Below, in pieces: positions 7,841 through 62,922 of a stretch of DNA of 64,000 nucleotides. The number at the start of each line of letters is the position of its first letter. Positions within the stretch are counted from its first letter, which is position 1. The DNA is taken from positions 42,572 through 106,571 of the forward strand of contig JBAZKA010000003.1 of assembly GCA_041651015.1 (NCBI GenBank), given 5' to 3'. The notes beneath the pieces were generated by a model. That model worked only from the letters and a program-made list of their open reading frames with translations. It searched no databases and had not been told where the DNA came from. The stretch comes from Patescibacteria group bacterium (GTDB lineage Bacteria; Patescibacteriota; Patescibacteriia; Magasanikbacterales; GWA2-37-8). The translations under genes and the position numbers were made by a program.

Positions 7841-7908
7841 TCTGGATCCCCGCCTTCGCGGGGATGACACTGCCGAAGGGATTCCTCGGCTTCGCTCGGA
7901 ATGACAGT
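7841..7908. repeat. Composite GC-rich palindromic repeat (module B GGATCCCCGCCTTCGCGGGGATGACAC + module A CCGAAGGGATTCCTCGGCTTCGCTCGGAATGACAG)
   Basis: Module B matches 52024-52050 and 58568-58615. Module A matches 41255-41318. Made of nested short hairpins. Intergenic here. Confidence 0.7.
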
Positions 7909-7910
7909 TT

Positions 7911-9272
7911 TTACACCTCCACCGCCTCCTCCGGATCAGCCACGGAAACTCGCACGCCCAATTCACTCTTAATTTTATCGGCTAAAGGCTGGCTTTGCTC
8001 GGGCTCGCCGTGATTCAAGACCACGCATTTGGGCGTTGAACCGTTGTTTTTAATCCAATTAAAAATTTTAATTCTATCCGCGTGCGCCGAGAGCACATCA
8101 ATAAACTCCACATGGCATTTGACTGCCACGTGTTCATTCAAGACGTCCACATGAGTCGCGCCATCCAAAATCTTCCTGCCCGGCGTGTGCATGGCTTGGA
8201 AACCGGTGAGAAATAAAGTATTGCGATTATCAGACAAATAGCGCAACGCGTGATACTGGATGCGTCCGCCGTTCATCATACCCGAACCGGCAATAATAAT
8301 TTTTTGGCCAATGACCGTATTGATGCGCTTGGAATCATCGCGCGAACGGGTCATTTTCAATCCGCCGAATTGGAACAAATCATCACCGGACCGGATATAC
8401 CTTTCCGCTTCTTCATCAAAATATTGCGTGTAGCGGTTAAACACGCCCGTTGCGTTGATGGCGAGCGGGCTGTCCAAAAAAATCGGAATGTTCGGCGGTA
8501 AAACTTGGTCGCGGTCAATCAAATCATTTAAATCATACAAAATTTCCTGGGTGCGTTCCACGGAAAAAGCCGGCATCATCAAAGTACCGCCCCGCTCAAG
8601 CGCCTCGGCCACAACTTTTTTAATGGCAGACTTGCGGTCAATACTCGTGTCGTGTTCGCGGTCGCCATAAGTGGACTCGCAAATCAGCAAATAAACATCT
8701 TTGGGCAAGGCGTCGGTATCGCGTAAAATCGGGACATTCACATTGCCCAGGTCGCCGGAAAAAACAACTTTTTTGCCGGCTAAATTTATTTCCAAAAATG
8801 CCGAGCCGAAAATATGACCGGCTTCATAAAATTTAAACCTGATGTTTGATGCCGGTAAATCAAAATCATCATAATAATCCACTTGGCGCATCATACCGAT
8901 AACCTTGGCCACATCATCTAAATTATACAGAGCCGGCCGGCCAAATTTCCGGGCGTGATATTCCATGATTTCGCATGCATCCTCCAAAATCAATCTGGCG
9001 ATTTCAATAGTCGGCGGGGTGGCATAAATTTGCCCGCTGAATCCGCGCTTTATGAGCAACGGCAAGCGTCCGACATGGTCCAAATGCGCGTGCGTGACAA
9101 ACACAGCCGTGAGAGCGCTGGCGTCAAAAGCAAATGGGTCGGCATTACGGTCTTCCACAAAGTCCCCTCCCTGAAACATCCCGCAATCAACCAAAATTTT
9201 AATATCTCCCTCTTCCAGCAAACTGCACGAACCGGTGACTTCTCCGGCCGCGCCAAAAAATGATAATTTCAT
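7911..9272 (-). CDS. metallo-beta-lactamase / beta-CASP family ribonuclease (RNase J/CPSF-like, COG1236-type)
   Basis: 'FGAAGEVTGSCSLLEEGDIKILVDCGMFQGG' and 'HAHLDHVGRLP' (the HxHxDH MBL motif). About 450 aa with a beta-CASP C-terminus. Confidence 0.7.
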   Translation of the reverse strand: MKLSFFGAAGEVTGSCSLLEEGDIKILVDCGMFQGGDFVEDRNADPFAFDASALTAVFVTHAHLDHVGRLPLLIKRGFSGQIYATPPTIEIARLILEDACEIMEYHARKFGRPALYNLDDVAKVIGMMRQVDYYDDFDLPASNIRFKFYEAGHIFGSAFLEINLAGKKVVFSGDLGNVNVPILRDTDALPKDVYLLICESTYGDREHDTSIDRKSAIKKVVAEALERGGTLMMPAFSVERTQEILYDLNDLIDRDQVLPPNIPIFLDSPLAINATGVFNRYTQYFDEEAERYIRSGDDLFQFGGLKMTRSRDDSKRINTVIGQKIIIAGSGMMNGGRIQYHALRYLSDNRNTLFLTGFQAMHTPGRKILDGATHVDVLNEHVAVKCHVEFIDVLSAHADRIKIFNWIKNNGSTPKCVVLNHGEPEQSQPLADKIKSELGVRVSVADPEEAVEV

Positions 9273-9280
9273 GATATGAC

Positions 9281-9335
9281 GTTAAATAATCCGCTCTTGG
9301 CGAATCGCCCCCAGGGGGCATTTAACAGGTTAAAT
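9281..9335. repeat. Inverted-repeat element GTTAAAT...CGCCCCCAGGGGGC...ATTTAACAGG (family 2); second copy at 41148-41197
   Basis: 'cgcccccagggggcatttaacaggttaa' here versus 'cgcccccaaggggcgatttaacagggttaa' at 41172. Lies in the divergent promoter region between the RNase gene and the 9396 gene. Confidence 0.55.
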
Positions 9336-15653: not shown

Positions 15654-15683
15654 TAATTTGTAATTAATAATTTACACAATAAA

Positions 15684-15710
15684 ACACCCCGCATTTGCGG
15701 GGTGTTTTTC
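15684..15710. terminator. bidirectional rho-independent terminator (recJ / YtxH-like gene)
   Basis: 'acaccccgcatttgcggggtgt' followed by 'ttttt', with an A-run upstream. A near-identical hairpin occurs at 62886-62913. Confidence 0.75.
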
Positions 15711-15739
15711 GTTCTTTCGTAAATTTTTGCAGGCGGTAT

Positions 15740-35774: not shown

Positions 35775-37727
35775 TTATTTTACTACTTCGCCCTCTATCG
35801 GACCTTCATCAGTCTTTGGCGGCTCCTGTTGAGTATTTTGTTGGCCTGCCTGCCCGCCCGCCGAGGTGGGTCCGCCTTTGGCGGATTCGGCCTGGTACAT
35901 TTTTGTGCCGACCACTTGCGCGGCTTTAGACAATTCCTCGCCGGCTTTCTTGATCGCTTCCACATCATCTTTATCTTTTACTTCTTTCACTTTGGCGAGC
36001 GCGTCATTCACCGCCTTTTTCTCGTCATCGGTGATTAGTGGGGCTTTTCCGCCCGAGGCGGATCCGCCTTGGGCGGATTTCTCTTCCACGTCTTTCATCA
36101 TTTTTTCCGTGGTGTAAATCATGGTGTCAGCCAAATTGCGCGCCTCAATCAATTCTTGCTTTTTCTTGTCTTCGTCCGCGTGCGCTTCAGCTTCCTTTTT
36201 CATCTTTTCCACTTCATCTTTGGACAAACCGGACGAAGCGGTAATTTTAATTGATTGTTCTTTGCCTGTGGCTTTGTCTTTGGCTTTGACACTCAAAATT
36301 CCGTTCGCGTCAATGTCAAACGACACTTCAATTTGCGGAATACCGCGCGGAGCCGGCGGAATTCCGTCCAACATAAATCGTCCGAGAGTTTTGTTGTCAG
36401 ACGCCATCGGACGTTCGCCTTGGAGCACATGAATCTCCACACCCGGCTGGTTATCGGCCGCGGTGGAAAATACTTGCGTTTTTGATGTTGGAATCGTGGT
36501 GTTGCGTTCAATCAAACGCGTCATCACTTGCCCCATAGTTTCAAGACCGAGCGAAAGTGGCGTCACGTCCAAAAGTAAAATATCTTTAACTTCACCTTTG
36601 AGCACACCGCCTTGCACGCCCGCGCCAATCGCCACTACTTCATCCGGATTCACGGTGATGTTCGGCTTCTTGCCGAAAAACTTTTCCACGGTGGAAAGTA
36701 CGAGTGGCATGCGGGTCATACCACCGACCAACACCACTTCATTTATATCTTTTACATCAAGTTTAGCATCAGTCAAAGCATTGCGCACCGGGCCCAAAGT
36801 TTTTTCTACCAGATCACCAACCAATTCTTCCAGTTTCGCGCGGGTCAATTTCATGACCAAATGTTTCGGTCCGGTCGCGTCAGACGTGATAAACGGCTGA
36901 TTGATCTCGGATTCCATGGCTGTGGATAACTCAATCTTGGCTTTTTCCGCCGCTTCTTTGATGCGTTGCAGAGCCAAATTGTCTTTGCCCAAATCAACAC
37001 CGTTCTCGCGCTTGAATTCATCAATAATCCAATTAATCAAAACCTGGTCAAAATCATCACCGCCCAAATGCGTATCACCGTTGGTGGACAGCACCTGCAC
37101 GTTATCCGGCGCGACTTCCAAAATGGAAATGTCAAAAGTTCCACCGCCCAAATCATAGACCGCGATTTTTTGTTCAGTCTTTTTGTCAAAACCATAAGCC
37201 AAAGCGGCCGCAGTTGGTTCGTTCACAATGCGGAGCACATTGAGGCCGGCAATCACGCCCGCGTCCTTAGTCGCCTGGCGTTGCGAATCATCAAAATACG
37301 CCGGCACGGTAATGACCGCGTCAGTAATTTTCTCGCCGATTCGTTCTTCGGCATCGGCTTTCATTTTTTGCAAAATCATAGCCGAAATTTCTTGCGGAGA
37401 ATATTCGCTTCCTTGCATCGCCACTTTCACGCCCTCGCCCGCTTGCACAATTTTGTACGGCATCAATTTCAAATCACGTTGGACTTCGGCGTCGTTAAAA
37501 TGACGGCCGATGAGGCGTTTGATGGAATACAAAGTGTTTTCCGGATTAGTGACAGCTTGGCGTTTAGCCAGTTGGCCGACCAGGCGTTCACCTGATTTTG
37601 AAATTGCCACGATTGACGGCGTCGTACGCGCCCCCTCTTTGTTTTCCAACACCTTTGGCTGACCGCCTTCAATGATGGCCATGCAGGAGTTGGTTGTACC
37701 CAGATCTATTCCTAATACTTTAGACAT
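35775..37727 (-). CDS. dnaK: chaperone DnaK (Hsp70)
   Basis: 'GIDLGTTNS', 'DLGGGTFD', and '[11 protein letters not shown]'. Confidence 0.95.
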
Positions 37728-40722: not shown

Positions 40723-41340
40723 CTATTTCGCGAGCATAACCCTTGCGGCCTTAATCACTCTGTCCCCCATCTTAAAACCACCGGAAATTTCTTTGACGAT
40801 TTCGTCTTCGCCCGCGCCTTCAATCGTTTCATGCCCGACCGCCTCATGATATTTCGGGTCAAACTTTTCACCAACAGTTTTTATTTCTTCAACGCCGTGC
40901 GCTTTCATAATATCAGCAAATTGTTTGAGCACGTGATTCACGCCGTCAAGCCAAGGATTATTTTCACCCGCGACTCCGCTCGTGGACATTTTCAAATGCT
41001 CGTAAACCGGAATAAATTCTTCCAATATCTGCTGTTCACTCATTTGCGCCCATTCGGCCCGGCGGGCCAAAGTTTCTTTTTGTAAATTTTGATAATCCGC
41101 CAGAGCTCTCTGCCAGCCAATTTTATATTCTTCAGCTTCGGCTTTTACCCTGTTAAATTCAGCTTCGCTGACGCCCCCAAGGGGCGATTTAACAGGGTTA
41201 ACTTTTTCACAATTCTTGCAGGTCTTGTGAAAAAATGATTTTTTTTCCGCTACTGCATCACCCCGAAGGGATTCCTCCGCTTCATTCGCTTCGCTCGCTC
41301 CGGTCGGAATGACAGGTGGAATATTTTGTTCGTCAGACAT
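40723..41340 (-). CDS. grpE: nucleotide exchange factor GrpE (N-terminal about 65 codons composed of repeat elements; true start uncertain)
   Basis: C-terminal GrpE core 'WQRALADYQNLQKE...KMSTSGVAGENNPWLDGVNHVLKQF...GHETIEGAGEDEIVKEI..GFKMGDRVIKAARV'. Confidence 0.8.
   Translation of the reverse strand: MSDEQNIPPVIPTGASEANEAEESLRGDAVAEKKSFFHKTCKNCEKVNPVKSPLGGVSEAEFNRVKAEAEEYKIGWQRALADYQNLQKETLARRAEWAQMSEQQILEEFIPVYEHLKMSTSGVAGENNPWLDGVNHVLKQFADIMKAHGVEEIKTVGEKFDPKYHEAVGHETIEGAGEDEIVKEISGGFKMGDRVIKAARVMLAK
41148..41197. repeat. family-2 inverted-repeat element (CCCTGTTAAAT...CGCCCCCAAGGGGCG...ATTTAACAGGG) inside the grpE 5' coding region
   Basis: Matches 9281-9335. Would be translated as NPVKSPLGGVSEAEF. 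Confidence 0.55.
41255..41318. repeat. module-A palindromic repeat (CCCGAAGGGATTCCTCCGCTTC...CGGAATGACAGG) inside the grpE 5' coding region
   Basis: Matches 7871-7908. Would be translated as PTGASEANEAEESLRGDAV. Confidence 0.6.
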
Positions 41341-41344
41341 AATT

Positions 41345-42040
41345 TTACAATGAATTTTTTATTTTATTCAAAATCGCCAAATTCTTTTTGTAATCCATAC
41401 GTACCGGACCCAAAATCACAAACATGCCTTCTTTGGTATCGGCCAACCGCGCCGCCACCACGCTCAAATATCCGCCAAACGGATGCTCATTGCCAATATA
41501 AATTTTCGGCTCGGCGGTAATCTTTGATTCAAAACGGCCAAGGCATTCCTCGCACTGGTCAAACATGCGCGAAGTGTTGACAACCATTTCCGCGTTTATA
41601 AATTCCGGCTTTTCAAACAAATTGGAAAATCCCGTGTAATAAATTCTGTCCAGTGTAAAAGCGACAATCACCGCGTCGCGCGATATGGCCGAGGCTTCTT
41701 TAGCCGTGGATTTGCAAATTGATTCACGTTCATCGGCCAACGACATTGTTCGTTCCATTCTCTCGCTATCTTTGGCAGATAATTTGATTTTGGAATCATC
41801 TATGGAATCCACGTAAAACCGATAACCAAGCTCAGTCGGAATTCGGCCCGCGGAAGTGTGCGGATGAGTCAAGTATCCGGCTTCTTCCAACGCCCGCAAA
41901 TCATTTCTGATAGTCGCTTCGCTCCAACCAATTTTTTCCTCGTATGCCAAAAATTTGGACCCGACCGGTTCGGCCGAATGGATAAAACTCTCAATTACGA
42001 GAATCAGTAATTCTTCTTGTCTCGGGTCTAATTCCGGCAT
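41345..42040 (-). CDS. hrcA: heat-inducible transcription repressor HrcA
   Basis: 'ELLILVIESFIHSAEPVGSKFL' winged HTH. Length about 230 aa. CIRCE operator immediately upstream. Confidence 0.85.
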   Translation of the reverse strand: MPELDPRQEELLILVIESFIHSAEPVGSKFLAYEEKIGWSEATIRNDLRALEEAGYLTHPHTSAGRIPTELGYRFYVDSIDDSKIKLSAKDSERMERTMSLADERESICKSTAKEASAISRDAVIVAFTLDRIYYTGFSNLFEKPEFINAEMVVNTSRMFDQCEECLGRFESKITAEPKIYIGNEHPFGGYLSVVAARLADTKEGMFVILGPVRMDYKKNLAILNKIKNSL

Positions 42041-42049
42041 ATTGGTAAT

Positions 42050-42076
42050 TTATCACTCATACGTCTTGAGTGATAA
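42050..42076. promoter_or_regulatory. CIRCE operator (TTATCACTC-N9-GAGTGATAA) upstream of hrcA
   Basis: A perfect 9-9-9 inverted repeat matching the CIRCE consensus TTAGCACTC-N9-GAGTGCTAA at 16 of 18 positions. Lies between the -10 and the hrcA ATG. Confidence 0.75.
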
Positions 42077-42102
42077 TACACCAAACACGTCCACAGTGTC
42101 AA
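42073..42102 (-). promoter_or_regulatory. hrcA promoter TTGACA-18-TATTAT overlapping CIRCE
   Basis: Minus strand: 'TTGACActgtggacgtgtttggtgTATTAT'. Confidence 0.55.
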
Positions 42103-51364: not shown

Positions 51365-52183
51365 TTATTTTTGTTGTTTGATTCTACCCCAAACACGCCA
51401 TAAAGTCAAGATGATAAAAAACCCAACAATCCCCCACTGCGCCGGAGTTAAATGCCAATACCGCGCATCGGCGCCAATAACGTCATCGGCCCGAAGAAAA
51501 TCCAAAAAAAATCTGCCGAACGCGTAAAGCATAAACCCGAATACGGGTGAACCGACTTTTTTTATCACCCGAACACGGCGCGTGAATAATAAAATGAAAA
51601 AAATAATCAATGCCAGAATGGAATCCATCAGCCCCAAATCATAACGCGCGCCATAAGGAAAATTCACGGACAAGAAAAAATTCGTCAGACGTCCGACGTG
51701 GTCGTGAATCAAAAAACATCCGATGCGTCCAATCGCCCAGCCCAACCAAAAATATATGCCGATAATTTCCGCGTATGGTCTGAAATCCGTCCATTTTATT
51801 TTTTTATTTTTTAGAAATATCCAAAGACCGGCCAGCGCTCCCGCAAATCCACCAAGAGAAGACGCCCCGCCGTGCCAAATTTTTAGAATTTCCGCGGGAT
51901 TTTCCCAATAATAAATTGGTTCGTAAAAAATAATGTGAAAAATTCTGGCGCCGATGAAACCGCCGAAAATCAGCCAAAAGAATACGCTCCACATGGTCTC
52001 GGGATTCAAGATGACGCCCTCCTGGATTCCCGCCTTCGCGGGAATGACACGAACGGACGCTTTCATAATTTCCCGCAAACAAAAAAATAAAGCAATGAGC
52101 GCGCCCAGCGCCACGCAAATCCCCCAGACCTGCAGGGTAATCGGTCCGAGCGAAATTGTTTGCCAAGAAAAATACGGGATCAT
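51365..52183 (-). CDS. lgt: prolipoprotein diacylglyceryl transferase Lgt, carrying an in-frame repeat-element insertion in the TM1-TM2 loop
   Basis: 'ISLGPITLQVWGICVALGALIALFF', 'FFWLIFGGFIGARIFHIIFYEP', 'HGGASSLGGFAGA'. Loop residues 45-55 'RVIPAKAGIQE' are encoded by repeat 52024-52050. Confidence 0.85.
   Translation of the reverse strand: MIPYFSWQTISLGPITLQVWGICVALGALIALFFCLREIMKASVRVIPAKAGIQEGVILNPETMWSVFFWLIFGGFIGARIFHIIFYEPIYYWENPAEILKIWHGGASSLGGFAGALAGLWIFLKNKKIKWTDFRPYAEIIGIYFWLGWAIGRIGCFLIHDHVGRLTNFFLSVNFPYGARYDLGLMDSILALIIFFILLFTRRVRVIKKVGSPVFGFMLYAFGRFFLDFLRADDVIGADARYWHLTPAQWGIVGFFIILTLWRVWGRIKQQK
52024..52050. repeat. module-B palindromic repeat GGATTCCCGCCTTCGCGGGAATGACAC inside the lgt coding sequence (in frame)
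   Basis: Identical core at 7845-7870 and 58568-58615. The ATTCCC-N8-GGGAAT hairpin is encoded as VIPAKAGIQ. Confidence 0.7.
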
Positions 52184-53538
52184 TTTTGTCTAACGAGATT
52201 CAACAGCTCATTAATATCATCAGTGACACGGCAAAGTTCACGATCGCCGTGGCTGATCGTTTTGAAATCCGTATACATTACATTGATAAAATCCAAAAGC
52301 GGTTGCCAAAACTCACGGCCGTAAAGCACGAGCGGCATGGGTTCAACTTTTTTTGTTTCCACTAAGGTCAAAAGTTCAAATAATTGGTGAAGAGTACCAT
52401 ACCCGCCCGGAAAAAACGCAAAACCATGCGATGGCGCGGTGATAATTAATTTGCGCACGAATGGAAAAGTAAAACCAATAGTCCGTGACAAATAATTATT
52501 CCGGCGTTCCACTCCGCGCACACGCATATTAATACCAACACTCTCGCCGCCGGATTCATAAGCGCCACGGCTGACCGCTTCCATGATACCCGGACCGCCG
52601 CCGGTAATAGTCATATAGCCGTTCAACGCGAGTTCCCGGCCAAGATTGCGCGCATCTTCATAATATTTTGTGCCCGGCATGATGCTTTTGGTACCAAGCA
52701 CGGTGACATCATTTTTTACTTTATTCAAAAATTCAAAACCCTCCACCAATTCGGCCATAATCCGAAATATTCTCCACTCCACCTCGCGTTTATCCGCGCC
52801 GTGCAAATCAAAATCATTGGGTCGGTCGGTCGTATTTTTTATTAAATTAAAAGCATCCTCCGCGGTATCCACTACATGCCAATTTTTCAAATCCGCTTCC
52901 ACAATCGCGTTTGCGATTTGGCCGGATTTTTCCCGCAAAAATTTTAAAATTGGATTCCAAAAATCCGAACCGACCAGCACTACCGGCACGTCCGGCATAT
53001 AGCCCTGTTCAATCAAATCCACCACTTCAAAAAATTCATCCAAAGTGCCAAATCCTCCCGGGAAAAACACGAAGGCGTTGGCCGGCGAAGTGAGCATTAC
53101 TTTGCGAGTGAAGAAATAATAAAACGCGGCCGATTCTTTGACATACGGGTTGATACGCTGTTCAAACGGCAGTTGAATGTTGAGGCCGATTGATTCACCG
53201 CCGGCTTCAAAAGCGCCGCGGTTGGCCGCTTCCATGATACCCGGACCGCCGCCGGTAATGGTGGTAAAATTATTTTTGGCCAACAAACGCCCAAGTTCAA
53301 CCGCTATTTTATAATATTTGGAATTTGGCGTAATGCGCGCCGAGCCCAAAATCGTCACTTCATTTTTCAATTTGCCCAAAAATTCAAAACCTTCCACGAA
53401 CTCAGACATAATTTTAAAAATCCGCCATGATTCGCGGTAATCAACAGCCGCGCCGGCAGTGGCGATTTTTTGTTCCTCGGTAAAATCATGGACCTCGGGC
53501 AAATTTTTTAGTTCTTCTACGGCAATTTTCTGGGACAT
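52180..53538 (-). CDS. tandem double LOG-family (TIGR00730 / lysine-decarboxylase-like) protein
   Basis: Two full repeats: 'TITGGGPGIMEAANRGAFEAGGESIGLNIQLPFEQ...' and 'MTITGGGPGIMEAVSRGAYESGGESVGINMRV...', each with 'FFPGG(F/Y)GTL(D/H)E(F/L)FE' C-terminal motifs. Confidence 0.75.
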   Translation of the reverse strand: MSQKIAVEELKNLPEVHDFTEEQKIATAGAAVDYRESWRIFKIMSEFVEGFEFLGKLKNEVTILGSARITPNSKYYKIAVELGRLLAKNNFTTITGGGPGIMEAANRGAFEAGGESIGLNIQLPFEQRINPYVKESAAFYYFFTRKVMLTSPANAFVFFPGGFGTLDEFFEVVDLIEQGYMPDVPVVLVGSDFWNPILKFLREKSGQIANAIVEADLKNWHVVDTAEDAFNLIKNTTDRPNDFDLHGADKREVEWRIFRIMAELVEGFEFLNKVKNDVTVLGTKSIMPGTKYYEDARNLGRELALNGYMTITGGGPGIMEAVSRGAYESGGESVGINMRVRGVERRNNYLSRTIGFTFPFVRKLIITAPSHGFAFFPGGYGTLHQLFELLTLVETKKVEPMPLVLYGREFWQPLLDFINVMYTDFKTISHGDRELCRVTDDINELLNLVRQK

Positions 53539-53544
53539 ATTTTT

Positions 53545-55002
53545 TTAATTATTTTTTTCCAAAAAATTTCCCACGCGCAAAATCGTTGATTCATCCAAAC
53601 GAGCGCCGATAATTTGCGCGCCAATCGGCAAACCGGATTTAGTCTTGCCAACCGGCACGGACAATGCCGGCATGCCGGCTACAGCCGCGGGCGAGACCAT
53701 CACATCAGCCAAATAAAGCGATAATGGGTCATTTAGCTTCTCGCCCAAACCGAATGCCGGACTCGGCGTGGTCGGGGTAATCAAGGCATCAACTTTTTTA
53801 AATACTTTATCAAAATCATTTTTGATGAGCGTTCTCACCTTCTGCGCTTTTTTGTAATAGGCATCATAATATCCGGCTGAAAGCGCGTAAGTGCCGATTA
53901 AAATTCTGCGTTTGACTTCCTCGGGAAAACCTTGGGCGCGCGATTCAGCATACAAATCAAATAAATTTTTGGCTTCGACGCGTGAACCATAACGCACACC
54001 ATCCAACCGCGCCAGATTGGAACTATCCTCGCTCGGCACCAGAATATAATAAACCGCCATGGCATATTTAGTATAAGGCAAGCTCACATCAACAATTTTA
54101 CAACCGAGTGATTTTAATTTCGCGATTTGATTTTGAACGGCGCGCAATACTTCGTCATCAATACTAATCTCCCCGCCCGAGGCGGGTCCGCCTAGGGCGG
54201 AATAGTATTCTTTGGGCACACCAATAGTCATTCCCTTGATATCTTTACTAATTTCTTTGGAATATTTCGGCACCTCGTCTGACACAGTCGTTGCATCTTT
54301 CACGTCGGCTCCGGCCATAATTTCCATAAGCATGGCAATATCCTCAACGGTTTTCGCGATCGGCCCGACCGTGTCCAGAGACGAAGCCATGGGCATAATG
54401 CCAAAACGCGAATTACGGCCATAACTCGGGCGCAAGCCAACCACTCCGCAAAACGCCGCCGGCTGGCGGATTGAACCACCCGTGTCCTCGGCAACAGAAA
54501 AAATACATTCATGGTCAGCCACGGCCGCGGCCGAACCGCCGGATGAACCGCCGGCTACTTTGGTCGTATCATGCGGATTTTTTACCGGGCCATACATGCT
54601 GTTTTCATTGCTCGCGCCGTGGCCAAAAGCATCACAATTATTTTTTCCAATTACGACGCCGCCCGCGGCGCGCAATTTTTTTATCACTGTCGCTTCATAC
54701 GGCGGAATATATTTATCCAAAATTTTGGCCGCACCCGTGGAACGAATTCCCTCGGTCACAATTGCATCCTTCACGCTGAACGGCACACCGGTGAGAGCGC
54801 CTGCCTTCTTTTCTGAAATTAAAACATCGGCGGTCTTGGCGTCAGTTAACGCCTCTTCTTCATTCACAGTGATAAACGCGTTCAATTCTTTATTGCGCTT
54901 TTTGATTTGCGACAAACACGCCTCGGTTAATTCCATGGCGCTAAATTTCTTTTTCTTCAATCCTTCAACAGATTCTTTGATTGTCAGTTCGTTTAATTCC
55001 AC
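53545..55002 (-). CDS. gatA: Glu-tRNA(Gln)/Asp-tRNA(Asn) amidotransferase subunit A
   Basis: Amidase signature 'GGSSGGSAAAVA'. Follows gatC. Apparent GTG start. Confidence 0.92.
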   Translation of the reverse strand: MELNELTIKESVEGLKKKKFSAMELTEACLSQIKKRNKELNAFITVNEEEALTDAKTADVLISEKKAGALTGVPFSVKDAIVTEGIRSTGAAKILDKYIPPYEATVIKKLRAAGGVVIGKNNCDAFGHGASNENSMYGPVKNPHDTTKVAGGSSGGSAAAVADHECIFSVAEDTGGSIRQPAAFCGVVGLRPSYGRNSRFGIMPMASSLDTVGPIAKTVEDIAMLMEIMAGADVKDATTVSDEVPKYSKEISKDIKGMTIGVPKEYYSALGGPASGGEISIDDEVLRAVQNQIAKLKSLGCKIVDVSLPYTKYAMAVYYILVPSEDSSNLARLDGVRYGSRVEAKNLFDLYAESRAQGFPEEVKRRILIGTYALSAGYYDAYYKKAQKVRTLIKNDFDKVFKKVDALITPTTPSPAFGLGEKLNDPLSLYLADVMVSPAAVAGMPALSVPVGKTKSGLPIGAQIIGARLDESTILRVGNFLEKNN

Positions 55003-62666: not shown

Positions 62667-62870
62667 ATGACCGGAAAAATCGCAAGATTGACGGACAAGG
62701 GTTTCGGCTTTATTACTCCTGATGGAGAAGCCGGCGGAAAGGATATTTTCTTCCATTCCACAGCCCTCGTCGGTGTGACCTTCAACGAATTGCGCGAAGG
62801 TGATGCCGTGTCCTTTGAAACCGAGCAATCGGACAAAGGCCCGCGCGCTATCAACGTGCAACGCGTCTAA
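62667..62870 (+). CDS. cspA: cold-shock protein (CspA family)
   Basis: 'GKIARLTDKGFGFITPDGEAGGKDIFFHSTAL' RNP1/RNP2 motifs. 67 aa. Confidence 0.92.
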   Translation: MTGKIARLTDKGFGFITPDGEAGGKDIFFHSTALVGVTFNELREGDAVSFETEQSDKGPRAINVQRV

Positions 62871-62885
62871 TAATATAGACATTAA

Positions 62886-62913
62886 AACACTCCGCATTTG
62901 CGGGGTGTTTTTT
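62886..62913 (+). terminator. rho-independent terminator of cspA (near-identical to 15684-15710)
   Basis: 'acactccgcatttgcggggtgt' followed by 'tttttt'. Confidence 0.75.
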
Positions 62914-62922
62914 GTTTAAAAT

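Follow-up and report, generated by a model that had tools for sequence, protein, structure and literature searches.

Two unrelated palindromic repeats carried in frame by the grpE gene of a Patescibacteria genome

Rickettsia palindromic elements (RPEs) are small palindromic repeats, many of which lie in frame in genes that stay functional, in protein regions that tolerate them (PMC3733652 and references therein). The CGTC repetitive extragenic palindromic sequences (CGTC REPs), a group that includes Neisseria dRS3 as well as Rickettsia RPE-4 and RPE-6 and for which intragenic copies have been reported (Di Nocera et al., 2013; PMC3733652), are mainly listed in alpha-Proteobacteria and consist of an unpaired 5' tag (CGTC, TGTC or CCTC), a stem of 8-9 bp with an A-T start, a loop of 4-5 nt and a consensus CCA tail (PMC3733652). 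MITEs, or miniature inverted-repeat transposable elements, measure 70-300 bp, with target-site duplications and related insertion sequences (IS) (PMC3733652). Here we describe a 64,000-nt stretch of a Patescibacteria genome (GCA_041651015.1, contig JBAZKA010000003.1, positions 42,572 to 106,571 of the forward strand; hereafter the window), whose grpE gene holds two repeats, which we call module A and the Y element. We consider it probable that two small palindromic repeats of unrelated kinds entered this gene in frame, and that the Y family is non-autonomous mobile or selfish DNA.

The grpE gene occupies positions 40723..41340 on the minus strand (205 codons plus stop) and, in the list of open reading frames (ORFs), starts at the ATG at 41338-41340. 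Its product matches the GrpE profile (Pfam PF01025, E 7.7e-35, residues 58-205 against profile positions 16-165), is 100% identical to the NCBI-named GrpE of a Patescibacteria metagenome-assembled genome (MAG) and has 968 homologues, the nearest of which are labelled Magasanikbacteria. Against insert-free orthologues the ratio of non-synonymous to synonymous substitution (dN/dS) in the core is ~0.05, so that the grpE core is under strong purifying selection. An initial annotation had assigned residues ~8-29 to a module-A repeat and residues ~48-64 to a second, inverted repeat, each with a partner elsewhere in the window. Both pairs were found at approximately these positions, far above chance (shuffle expectations 0 to 0.03), and their extents in grpE could be refined to codons 9-27 for module A (57 nt, 41260..41316, minus strand, PVIPTGASEANEAEESLRG; absent from orthologue L002) and to residues 48-65 for the Y element (41146..41199, minus strand). 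The repeats had also been said to make up the N-terminus, with the conserved core beginning only after them. The Pfam domain does begin only at residue 58, but the repeats are better described as two insertions into an existing tail with conserved protein motifs, MSDEQ and KKxFFxKxCKxCEK, which precede and separate them.

Three conserved blocks are seen in a protein alignment of 28 GrpE orthologues (A3), namely the start M-(S/T)-D-E-Q, the motif KKxFFxKxCKxCEK between the repeats and an invariant core from ~W76, so that the comparison with orthologous N-termini that had been suggested at the outset found both the start and the inter-repeat motif conserved as protein. These two are kept in orthologues whose DNA differs. 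The inter-repeat codons 32-46 (EKKSFFHKTCKNCEK, 41203..41247, minus strand), which encode a clade-conserved motif with CxxC, show 6 synonymous and 0 non-synonymous differences over 15 codons between the window and the nearest orthologue (L001), and this stretch is therefore translated in the grpE frame. The initial remark that no internal ATG lies between the repeats and the core was correct and can be extended, as neither ATG, GTG nor TTG occurs in frame between codon 1 and codon 91 of grpE, the latter codon being well within the invariant core (W76 is invariant). The repeats lie 24-195 nt inside the ORF and not in an untranslated leader; both preserve the frame, and the 6-nt difference in module-A length between the window and L001 is also in frame. 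As judged from these sequence comparisons, the ATG at 41340 is shown to be the only usable start of grpE and both repeats to be translated as part of the protein. The earlier view of a translated N-terminal extension thus holds as regards translation (conserved motifs; 6/0 synonymous/non-synonymous), but the repeats are internal in-frame insertions and not an extension. It had further been reasoned that orthologues sharing these peptides without nucleotide repeats elsewhere would speak against the repeat interpretation; here the picture is mixed, since some orthologues do share the peptides, but via the same nucleotide repeats, which also occur elsewhere in the genomes. For annotation, this settles the grpE start in favour of the one listed and assigns a repeat origin to 37 of the first 65 residues.

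AlphaFold models residues 1-58 as low-confidence coil followed by a long helix from residue 59, with module A within the disordered tail and the Y insert at the junction of tail and helix, where its last seven residues (SEAEFNR) lengthen the helix; both inserts thus lie outside the folded core. Peptides spanning the CEK-VNPVK and FNRV-KAEAEEYK junctions, or MSDEQNIPPVIPTGA, would mark the translated inserts. The motif KKxFFxKxCKxCEK is present with its CxxC pair in the GrpE tails of the clade and, GrpE being a dimer, could serve as a site for metal binding or redox chemistry. The Y insertion comes two residues past this motif.

The Y insertion unit of grpE is 54 nt long, comprising AA, a 50-nt core (41148-41197) and TA, and encodes NPVKSPLGGVSEAEFNRV. 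The core reads, in order, CCCTGTTAAAT, CGCCCC-TTG-GGGGCG, TCAGC-GAA-GCTGA and ATTTAACAGGG, which corresponds to an 11-12-bp outer stem enclosing two hairpins at a junction without unpaired bases. Predicted folding energies are -30.3 kcal/mol for the RNA form (z -5.5) and -21.9 kcal/mol for the DNA form (z -8.6). The pattern GTTAAAT-N20-50-ATTTAAC occurs in the window only at 41152-41193 and 9281-9326 (0.03 expected), the latter lying within a degenerate second Y copy (9279..9330, plus strand) that lies in the interval between divergent genes and shares the three-part fold of the grpE copy but not its inner hairpins. A possible third copy at 53002 was inspected and found not to be an element.

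Our first scan for relatives covered one genome per species with a pattern that was too specific, and returned nine matches, the window's own genome not among them; six of the nine showed the full Y architecture, their MAGs being labelled Saccharibacteria, Staskawiczbacteria, Berkelbacteria and others. When metagenomes were scanned with nothing but the two 11-nt arms fixed, at least 120 loci were obtained and, together with the genome matches, at least 127 copies with cores of 42-72 nt; one Y-bearing UvrC is labelled Portnoybacteria. The four positions flanking the arms on either side, which the search left unconstrained, show conservation that carries the palindrome on to TTYA...TRAA, so that the family is defined by a 15-bp closing stem, TTYA-CCCTGTTAAAT...ATTTAACAGGG-TRAA, around two hypervariable self-complementary hairpins. 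A perfect three-way-junction interior with no unpaired base is predicted for 73 of the 123 distinct copies listed, as against 0.05 in shuffled interiors. Among the 15 members of one length class, both sides have changed in 12 of 14 inner pairs, a level that none of 500 shuffles reached, and outer-stem variants are compensated too (TGTGAAAT/ATTTCACA; CCCCG/CGGGG). The hairpin loops are mostly the triloops AAA, GAA, TTT and TTC. The two ends of the element differ at one position (C vs T at -2) in 66 of the 126 copies listed, and the inner hairpins follow one another in an order that is independent of this end asymmetry (28 vs 21).

Searches for a described counterpart were negative. Rfam 15 at gathering score found only tRNAs in the window and in 12 element-bearing loci, a scan of 40900-41500 at a permissive E-value gave noise only, and the literature, searched by arm sequence and by REP or MITE in Patescibacteria, yielded no description of the Y family; the one paper containing both arm strings was a chance primer match. 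A viral contig collection held one Y match only, so phage carriage is not indicated. One full element lies on a locus (L009) that carries the depositor's label "uncultured Gammaproteobacteria bacterium", which is taken here as deposited. Elements nested in or tandem to others were also noticed (L102 663-737; L083 5546-5641; L089 1868-2155), with L089 holding two identical copies 231 bp apart.

About 12 copies are followed by a second hairpin module, GATTTTTATAnTCRCTnCGYTCnTTAAAAATC, which contains a TATAnT box (L016, L035, L093, L105, L112, L118, L130, L022, L111, L004, L066 and L038) and stops 4-5 nt short of the true ATG in genes that are unrelated to one another (typA, mraZ, msrA, nusA, rplB). 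Two of these loci (L016 2664-2794 and L035 3157-3286) have in common only a 131-bp composite of module, Y element and inverted module. The composite of the second module and the Y element may be a mobile promoter or leader cassette.

Empty and filled sites indicate how Y elements are inserted. Target-site duplication was not apparent, the 4-nt flanks being identical in 4 and the 2-nt flanks in 17 of the 125 copies listed, and duplication models of 2, 3 and 4 nt were ruled out by these flank statistics and by the core length modulo 3. The net insert is the core plus 4 nt (YA + core + TR). At one site in UvrC, FKI^KI (alignment A5), many orthologues are empty and five lineages are filled, among which there are four interiors that clearly differ; in three of the empty genes the sequence at this point is ...ATT|AAA.... 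The empty and filled UvrC sequences together imply that YA-core-TR sits in the centre of TT^AA. Insertion 3' of TTYA in the manner of IS200/IS605 was considered and rejected, as it predicts a stop codon or wrong residues at the UvrC sites. For grpE the implied ancestral site is GAA AAA GTT^AAA GCC (EKVKA), and the empty orthologue L001 reads GAA AAA TTA AAA GCC.

The listed Y copies, 127 in all, comprise 84 that are intergenic, 28 that overlap a gene end and 15 within ORFs, and 13 of these 15 are in substantial ORFs (about 10% of the copies listed). Compared with background, intergenic copies do not favour tandem, convergent or divergent gene pairs, and the copies show no strand bias relative to transcription (stability 33 vs 30; G-U pairs 38 vs 45); with no sense/antisense bias in stability or G-U counts, a strand-specific RNA function was discarded. 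Nine hosts other than GrpE were scanned, eight of which have a Pfam match (PpsA, YqeY, RmlD, a MurD-like ligase, TsaD, UvrC, a thiamine pyrophosphate enzyme and RsmH), the ninth being a 641-aa protein without one. All 13 copies in real ORFs are read in one frame, (I/V)(H/Y/N)PVK...FNRV(K), and all 13 have a core length of 2 modulo 3, compared with 42% of all copies listed. This single frame is explained by the sequence itself, with TAA in the arms when they are read in other frames and the one remaining open alternative shut by the TRA flank; we infer that coding insertions in other frames were purged by selection. One UvrC gene (L095 637-2070) holds three Y elements, with cores starting at 804, 1221 and ~1677, and at two of its sites the element seems to replace ~14 variable-loop residues and not just to add to them.

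The history of the grpE insertion is less simple. Its site is empty in the closest orthologues (L001, L002) but is also filled in a NUDIX-GrpE fusion (P0003/L139) and in P0022/L140, while P0107 has two Y copies elsewhere in its GrpE tail; a Y-type peptide is absent from 116 of the 120 GrpE relatives listed and absent at the window site from 117 of them. In view of the copies in L139 and L140, an insertion that is unique to the window and recent was discarded. Between the window and L139 the Y unit is identical at 52 of 54 positions, the differences being two loop bases, and there are 0 silent changes in 18 Y codons against 16 in 62 flanking codons. Relative to L140 all stem changes are compensated (CCCTG/CAGGG to CCCGG/CCGGG; CGCCCC/GGGGCG to CGCCGC/GCGGCG). 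These compensated stems and the lack of silent changes indicate that the Y palindrome has been maintained over long periods and is not decaying, unlike module A. Upkeep would proceed by hairpin-templated correction (quasipalindrome template switching), by selection on DNA structure, or by both.

We propose that Y elements are selfish, non-autonomous mobile DNA that would be acted on as DNA hairpins, and that the copy in grpE came to lie at the junction of unstructured tail and long helix, where it would be tolerated. Several points count against this interpretation. A putative mobility is read from empty and filled sites and from the patchy distribution. No autonomous partner was found and no distant arm pairs were seen in ~0.9 Mb of loci, which are short and were chosen for short elements; nor did a transposase turn up, although no search was aimed at transposases. 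The gene-context census used naive ORF calls, and the covariation alignment (A6, the 15-member class) was pre-selected by predicted fold. The identical grpE site is occupied in the more distant L139 and L140 yet not in the closest orthologues, for which either a single ancient gain followed by precise losses or repeated gains at a hot spot may account, and conservation of the Y element above that of neighbouring silent sites could mean function. A wider proposal is made only tentatively and is, in our view, rather doubtful as a whole, namely that Y represents a new class of mobile DNA that is active across Patescibacteria: a ~50-nt perfect three-way junction, moved by a conserved enzyme that recognizes hairpins or junctions, inserted into TT^AA without duplication, with flippable inner arms and a self-repairing palindrome, and steadily supplying essential proteins with insertions of 14-23 residues and, through its composite forms, these minimal genomes with cassettes close to genes.

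The surroundings of grpE bear on the first of the competing explanations. Directly upstream on the minus strand lies hrcA (41345..42040), whose stop codon is followed after 4 nt by the ATG of grpE, a gap also seen in orthologous operons; Pfam HrcA was recorded in the syntenic genes of L001, L132 and L133, and the gene after grpE is of the hsp20 type. Upstream of hrcA is the control region of the operon (42050..42102, minus strand), with a strong sigma-70-like promoter, TTGACA-18-TATTAT, at 42102..42073 (11/12 matches) and, overlapping it at 42050-42076, an inverted repeat, TTATCACTC-N9-GAGTGATAA, which is a variant of the classical CIRCE operator TTAGCACTC-N9-GAGTGCTAA. With promoter and CIRCE-like operator upstream of hrcA, heat-shock control needs no grpE leader. 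The initial annotation had left room for translation from a non-ATG start downstream, with the repeats as 5'-untranslated region or regulatory RNA of a heat-shock gene. The stability of the Y hairpin as RNA and the late beginning of the Pfam domain would suit such a scheme, and the folding check that had been suggested does find the Y element very stable, with module A on a par with its shuffles (z 0.08 and 0.36). Against this scheme, no canonical start precedes codon 91 while invariant residues begin at W76, the motifs on either side of module A are kept as protein with only synonymous differences in their DNA, and both inserts, as well as the module-A length difference from L001, are in frame. 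The same Y element also occurs within unrelated housekeeping genes, which does not fit a regulatory RNA of a heat-shock gene. That the repeats are untranslated and that grpE has a non-canonical downstream start is therefore extremely improbable.

It is less easily dismissed, though still unlikely, that the Y element is translated and yet also kept for a local nucleic-acid structure, such as a target in the mRNA for a double-strand-specific RNase, a pause in translation or a thermosensitive roadblock in a heat-shock message, or a DNA structure that binds protein. This would account for a Y element that is more conserved than adjacent silent sites, for stems that change only by compensation in three grpE lineages, for the conservation of the closing stem among MAGs that carry the labels of different candidate phyla and for the subset of copies found at fixed distances from start codons beside the second conserved module; on the other hand, Y elements are found in either orientation to transcription, without a difference in stability or G-U counts, lie in many unrelated genes and in all kinds of intergenic region, and are dispensable in the closest grpE orthologues, which function without one. 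The loops, too, are mostly GAA/AAA-type triloops, which would resemble stable DNA mini-hairpins more than RNA tetraloops. Selection might instead act on the peptides, the 18 residues after CxxC for example tuning the thermosensing helix of GrpE or its contact with DnaK, and the predicted extension of the long helix by SEAEFNR together with retention of the insertion in three lineages would agree with this. Such adaptive modules are nevertheless very improbable, given the same peptide frame in eight functionally unrelated Pfam-identified hosts, the rarity of the peptide among the GrpE relatives listed (117 of 120 lack it at this site) and conservation that resides at the level of nucleotides and structure, with a loop codon changing from L to Q or H. 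Finally, the source is a MAG, which is nothing specific in favour of grpE being a pseudogene or of the insertions being assembly artefacts, and with an intact ORF, the low dN/dS of its core, the same insertion in independent assemblies of other samples (L139, L140) and Y copies at 120 or more loci in unrelated metagenomes, we give this next to no credence. An origin of the Y insert as selfish DNA, tolerated in the GrpE tail, remains our preferred reading.

Module A belongs to a different set of repeats. The string CCGAAGGGATTCCTCSGCTTC occurs in the window only at 7873-7893 and 41263-41283 (0 expected in shuffles), and GCTTCGCTCGGAATGACA occurs at 7889-7906 and, with 2 mismatches, at 41297-41314, so that the grpE copy is ~18 nt longer than the copy at 7873-7906 between two conserved ends. 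The module-A site in grpE is empty in L002, filled in L001, L132 and L133 and doubly filled in L134, and a VIPT...EESL-type peptide is found in 11 of the 120 GrpE relatives listed. Units of the form GTCAT(T/C)CC...GG(A/G)ATC number five in the window against 0.12 expected; the GTCATTCC...GGAATC part of the grpE module spans 41270-41313. A REP pair (7845..7906, minus strand) lies just downstream of a metallo-beta-lactamase-fold gene (7911..9272) and joins a canonical unit, TGTC-ATCCCCGC-GAAG-GCGGGGAT-CCA (7845-7868), to the module-A unit that matches grpE (7873-7906). Another canonical TGTC-tagged REP, ATTCCCGC-GAAG-GCGGGAAT-CCA (52025..52048, minus strand, fold z -3.9), is in frame in an lgt-like ORF (51365..52183), a membrane protein gene in which it is read as VIPAKAGIQ; this is the second window gene with a repeat in its reading frame. 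In the grpE copy, as in those at 7880, 7845 and 52025, ATTCC directly follows the TGTC tag. The copies at 52025 and 7845 have an 8-bp stem and a GAAG loop, whereas the grpE copy lacks the stem of 8-9 bp with an A-T start and the loop of 4-5 nt, having a 5-bp ATTCC/GGAAT base and a ~30-nt interior. The 3' tail is CCC in the grpE and 7880 copies and CCA in those at 52025, 7845 and 58568. On this basis, module A of grpE may be read as an old, decaying and internally expanded relative of the CGTC/TGTC-tagged REPs.

Some further observations concern neighbouring subjects. Many GrpE orthologues of the group (P0003, P0011, P0019 and others; L139 1359-2351) are fusions with an N-terminal NUDIX hydrolase (PF00293 + PF01025). 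UvrC orthologues in alignment A5 carry other recurrent inserts that are unrelated to module A and Y, among them TGKFTPYRTEGSG at the FKI site, PSRSEGERRTNVLRT after NHF, DYNPPTT...SGRAP and ...PTGQA. The window itself holds three copies of a third hairpin repeat family, CCGCCCGAGGCGGRTCCGCCTNGGGCGGA (D3), at 35857-35894, 36049-36086 and 54173-54210, and two 90%-identical terminator-like hairpins with the flanks TAATAAT...AAAACACYCCGCATTTGCGGGGTGTTTTT at 15665-15713 and 62868-62916, 47 kb apart. The stretches 52544-52776 and 53195-53427 are 76-90% identical at a spacing of 651 bp, which suggests tandem paralogous genes.

The Patescibacteria are ultra-small and usually called streamlined, and our reading would have them carry selfish palindromic DNA inside essential proteins such as GrpE, UvrC, TsaD, RsmH, the MurD-like ligase and PpsA. 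The closing stem conserved across labelled phyla, the junction without unpaired bases and the duplication-free insertion point to a trans-acting machinery. On a practical level, recognition of the peptide signature ...PVK...FNRV... would improve alignments, domain boundaries and structure predictions in this group.

Set beside known systems, the Y elements show partial likenesses to several. With IS200/IS605 and REP/REPIN-RAYT they share the lack of target duplication, a plausible dependence on hairpins and tetranucleotides at the hairpin foot, but they have no GTAG tag and their best-supported insertion site is the centre of TT^AA and not 3' of a tetranucleotide. The string TGTTAAAT may resemble the E. 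coli dif site in its XerD arm, and also the core sites of integrons, with the arm orientation mismatched. Like the MITEs of Neisseria (Correia/NEMIS), Y elements are non-coding and dispersed, often lie beside genes, can be co-transcribed and have terminal inverted repeats, which for Y comprise 11-nt arms set by the search pattern and free flanks that extend them to 15 bp; they differ in being 42-72 nt long and in lacking target duplication, and no related IS was seen in the ~0.9 Mb of short loci. The T-shaped inverted terminal repeats of adeno-associated virus, which are ~125-nt replication termini of a linear virus, have an outer stem closing two small palindromes and occur in flip and flop forms. 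Y elements likewise combine an outer stem with two inner palindromes whose order is uncoupled from the end asymmetry; the analogy is structural only, with no relation in sequence or biology, and does no more than suggest that a hairpin intermediate might take part.

For the other repeat, the CGTC/TGTC REPs offer the comparison. The window copies at 52025 and 7845 fit them in tag, 8-bp A-T-start stem, 4-nt loop and CCA tail, and module A of grpE retains the tag and the ATTCC/GGAAT base of the stem and has CCC as its tail, but differs in its interrupted stem, ~30-nt interior and lack of a fold above chance. The host also differs, as it belongs to the Patescibacteria, which postdate the survey of these repeats (PMC3733652). 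The likeness of the Y family to the RPEs, compared here by description only, extends to its dispersal in reduced genomes, its in-frame position, the occasional presence of several copies in one gene and the inclusion of DNA-repair genes among its hosts. A palindromic repeat in frame in a gene under purifying selection, as is characteristic of RPEs, is what we found in grpE (dN/dS ~0.05), alongside the eight Pfam-identified hosts. The Y element differs from RPEs in occurring in Patescibacteria, in forming a compound three-way junction instead of a simple hairpin and in having its own insertion signature, and it is shorter than RPE-1, which is ~100-150 bp long. By analogy, then, the Rickettsia palindromic elements would be the closest described phenomenon to the Y elements.

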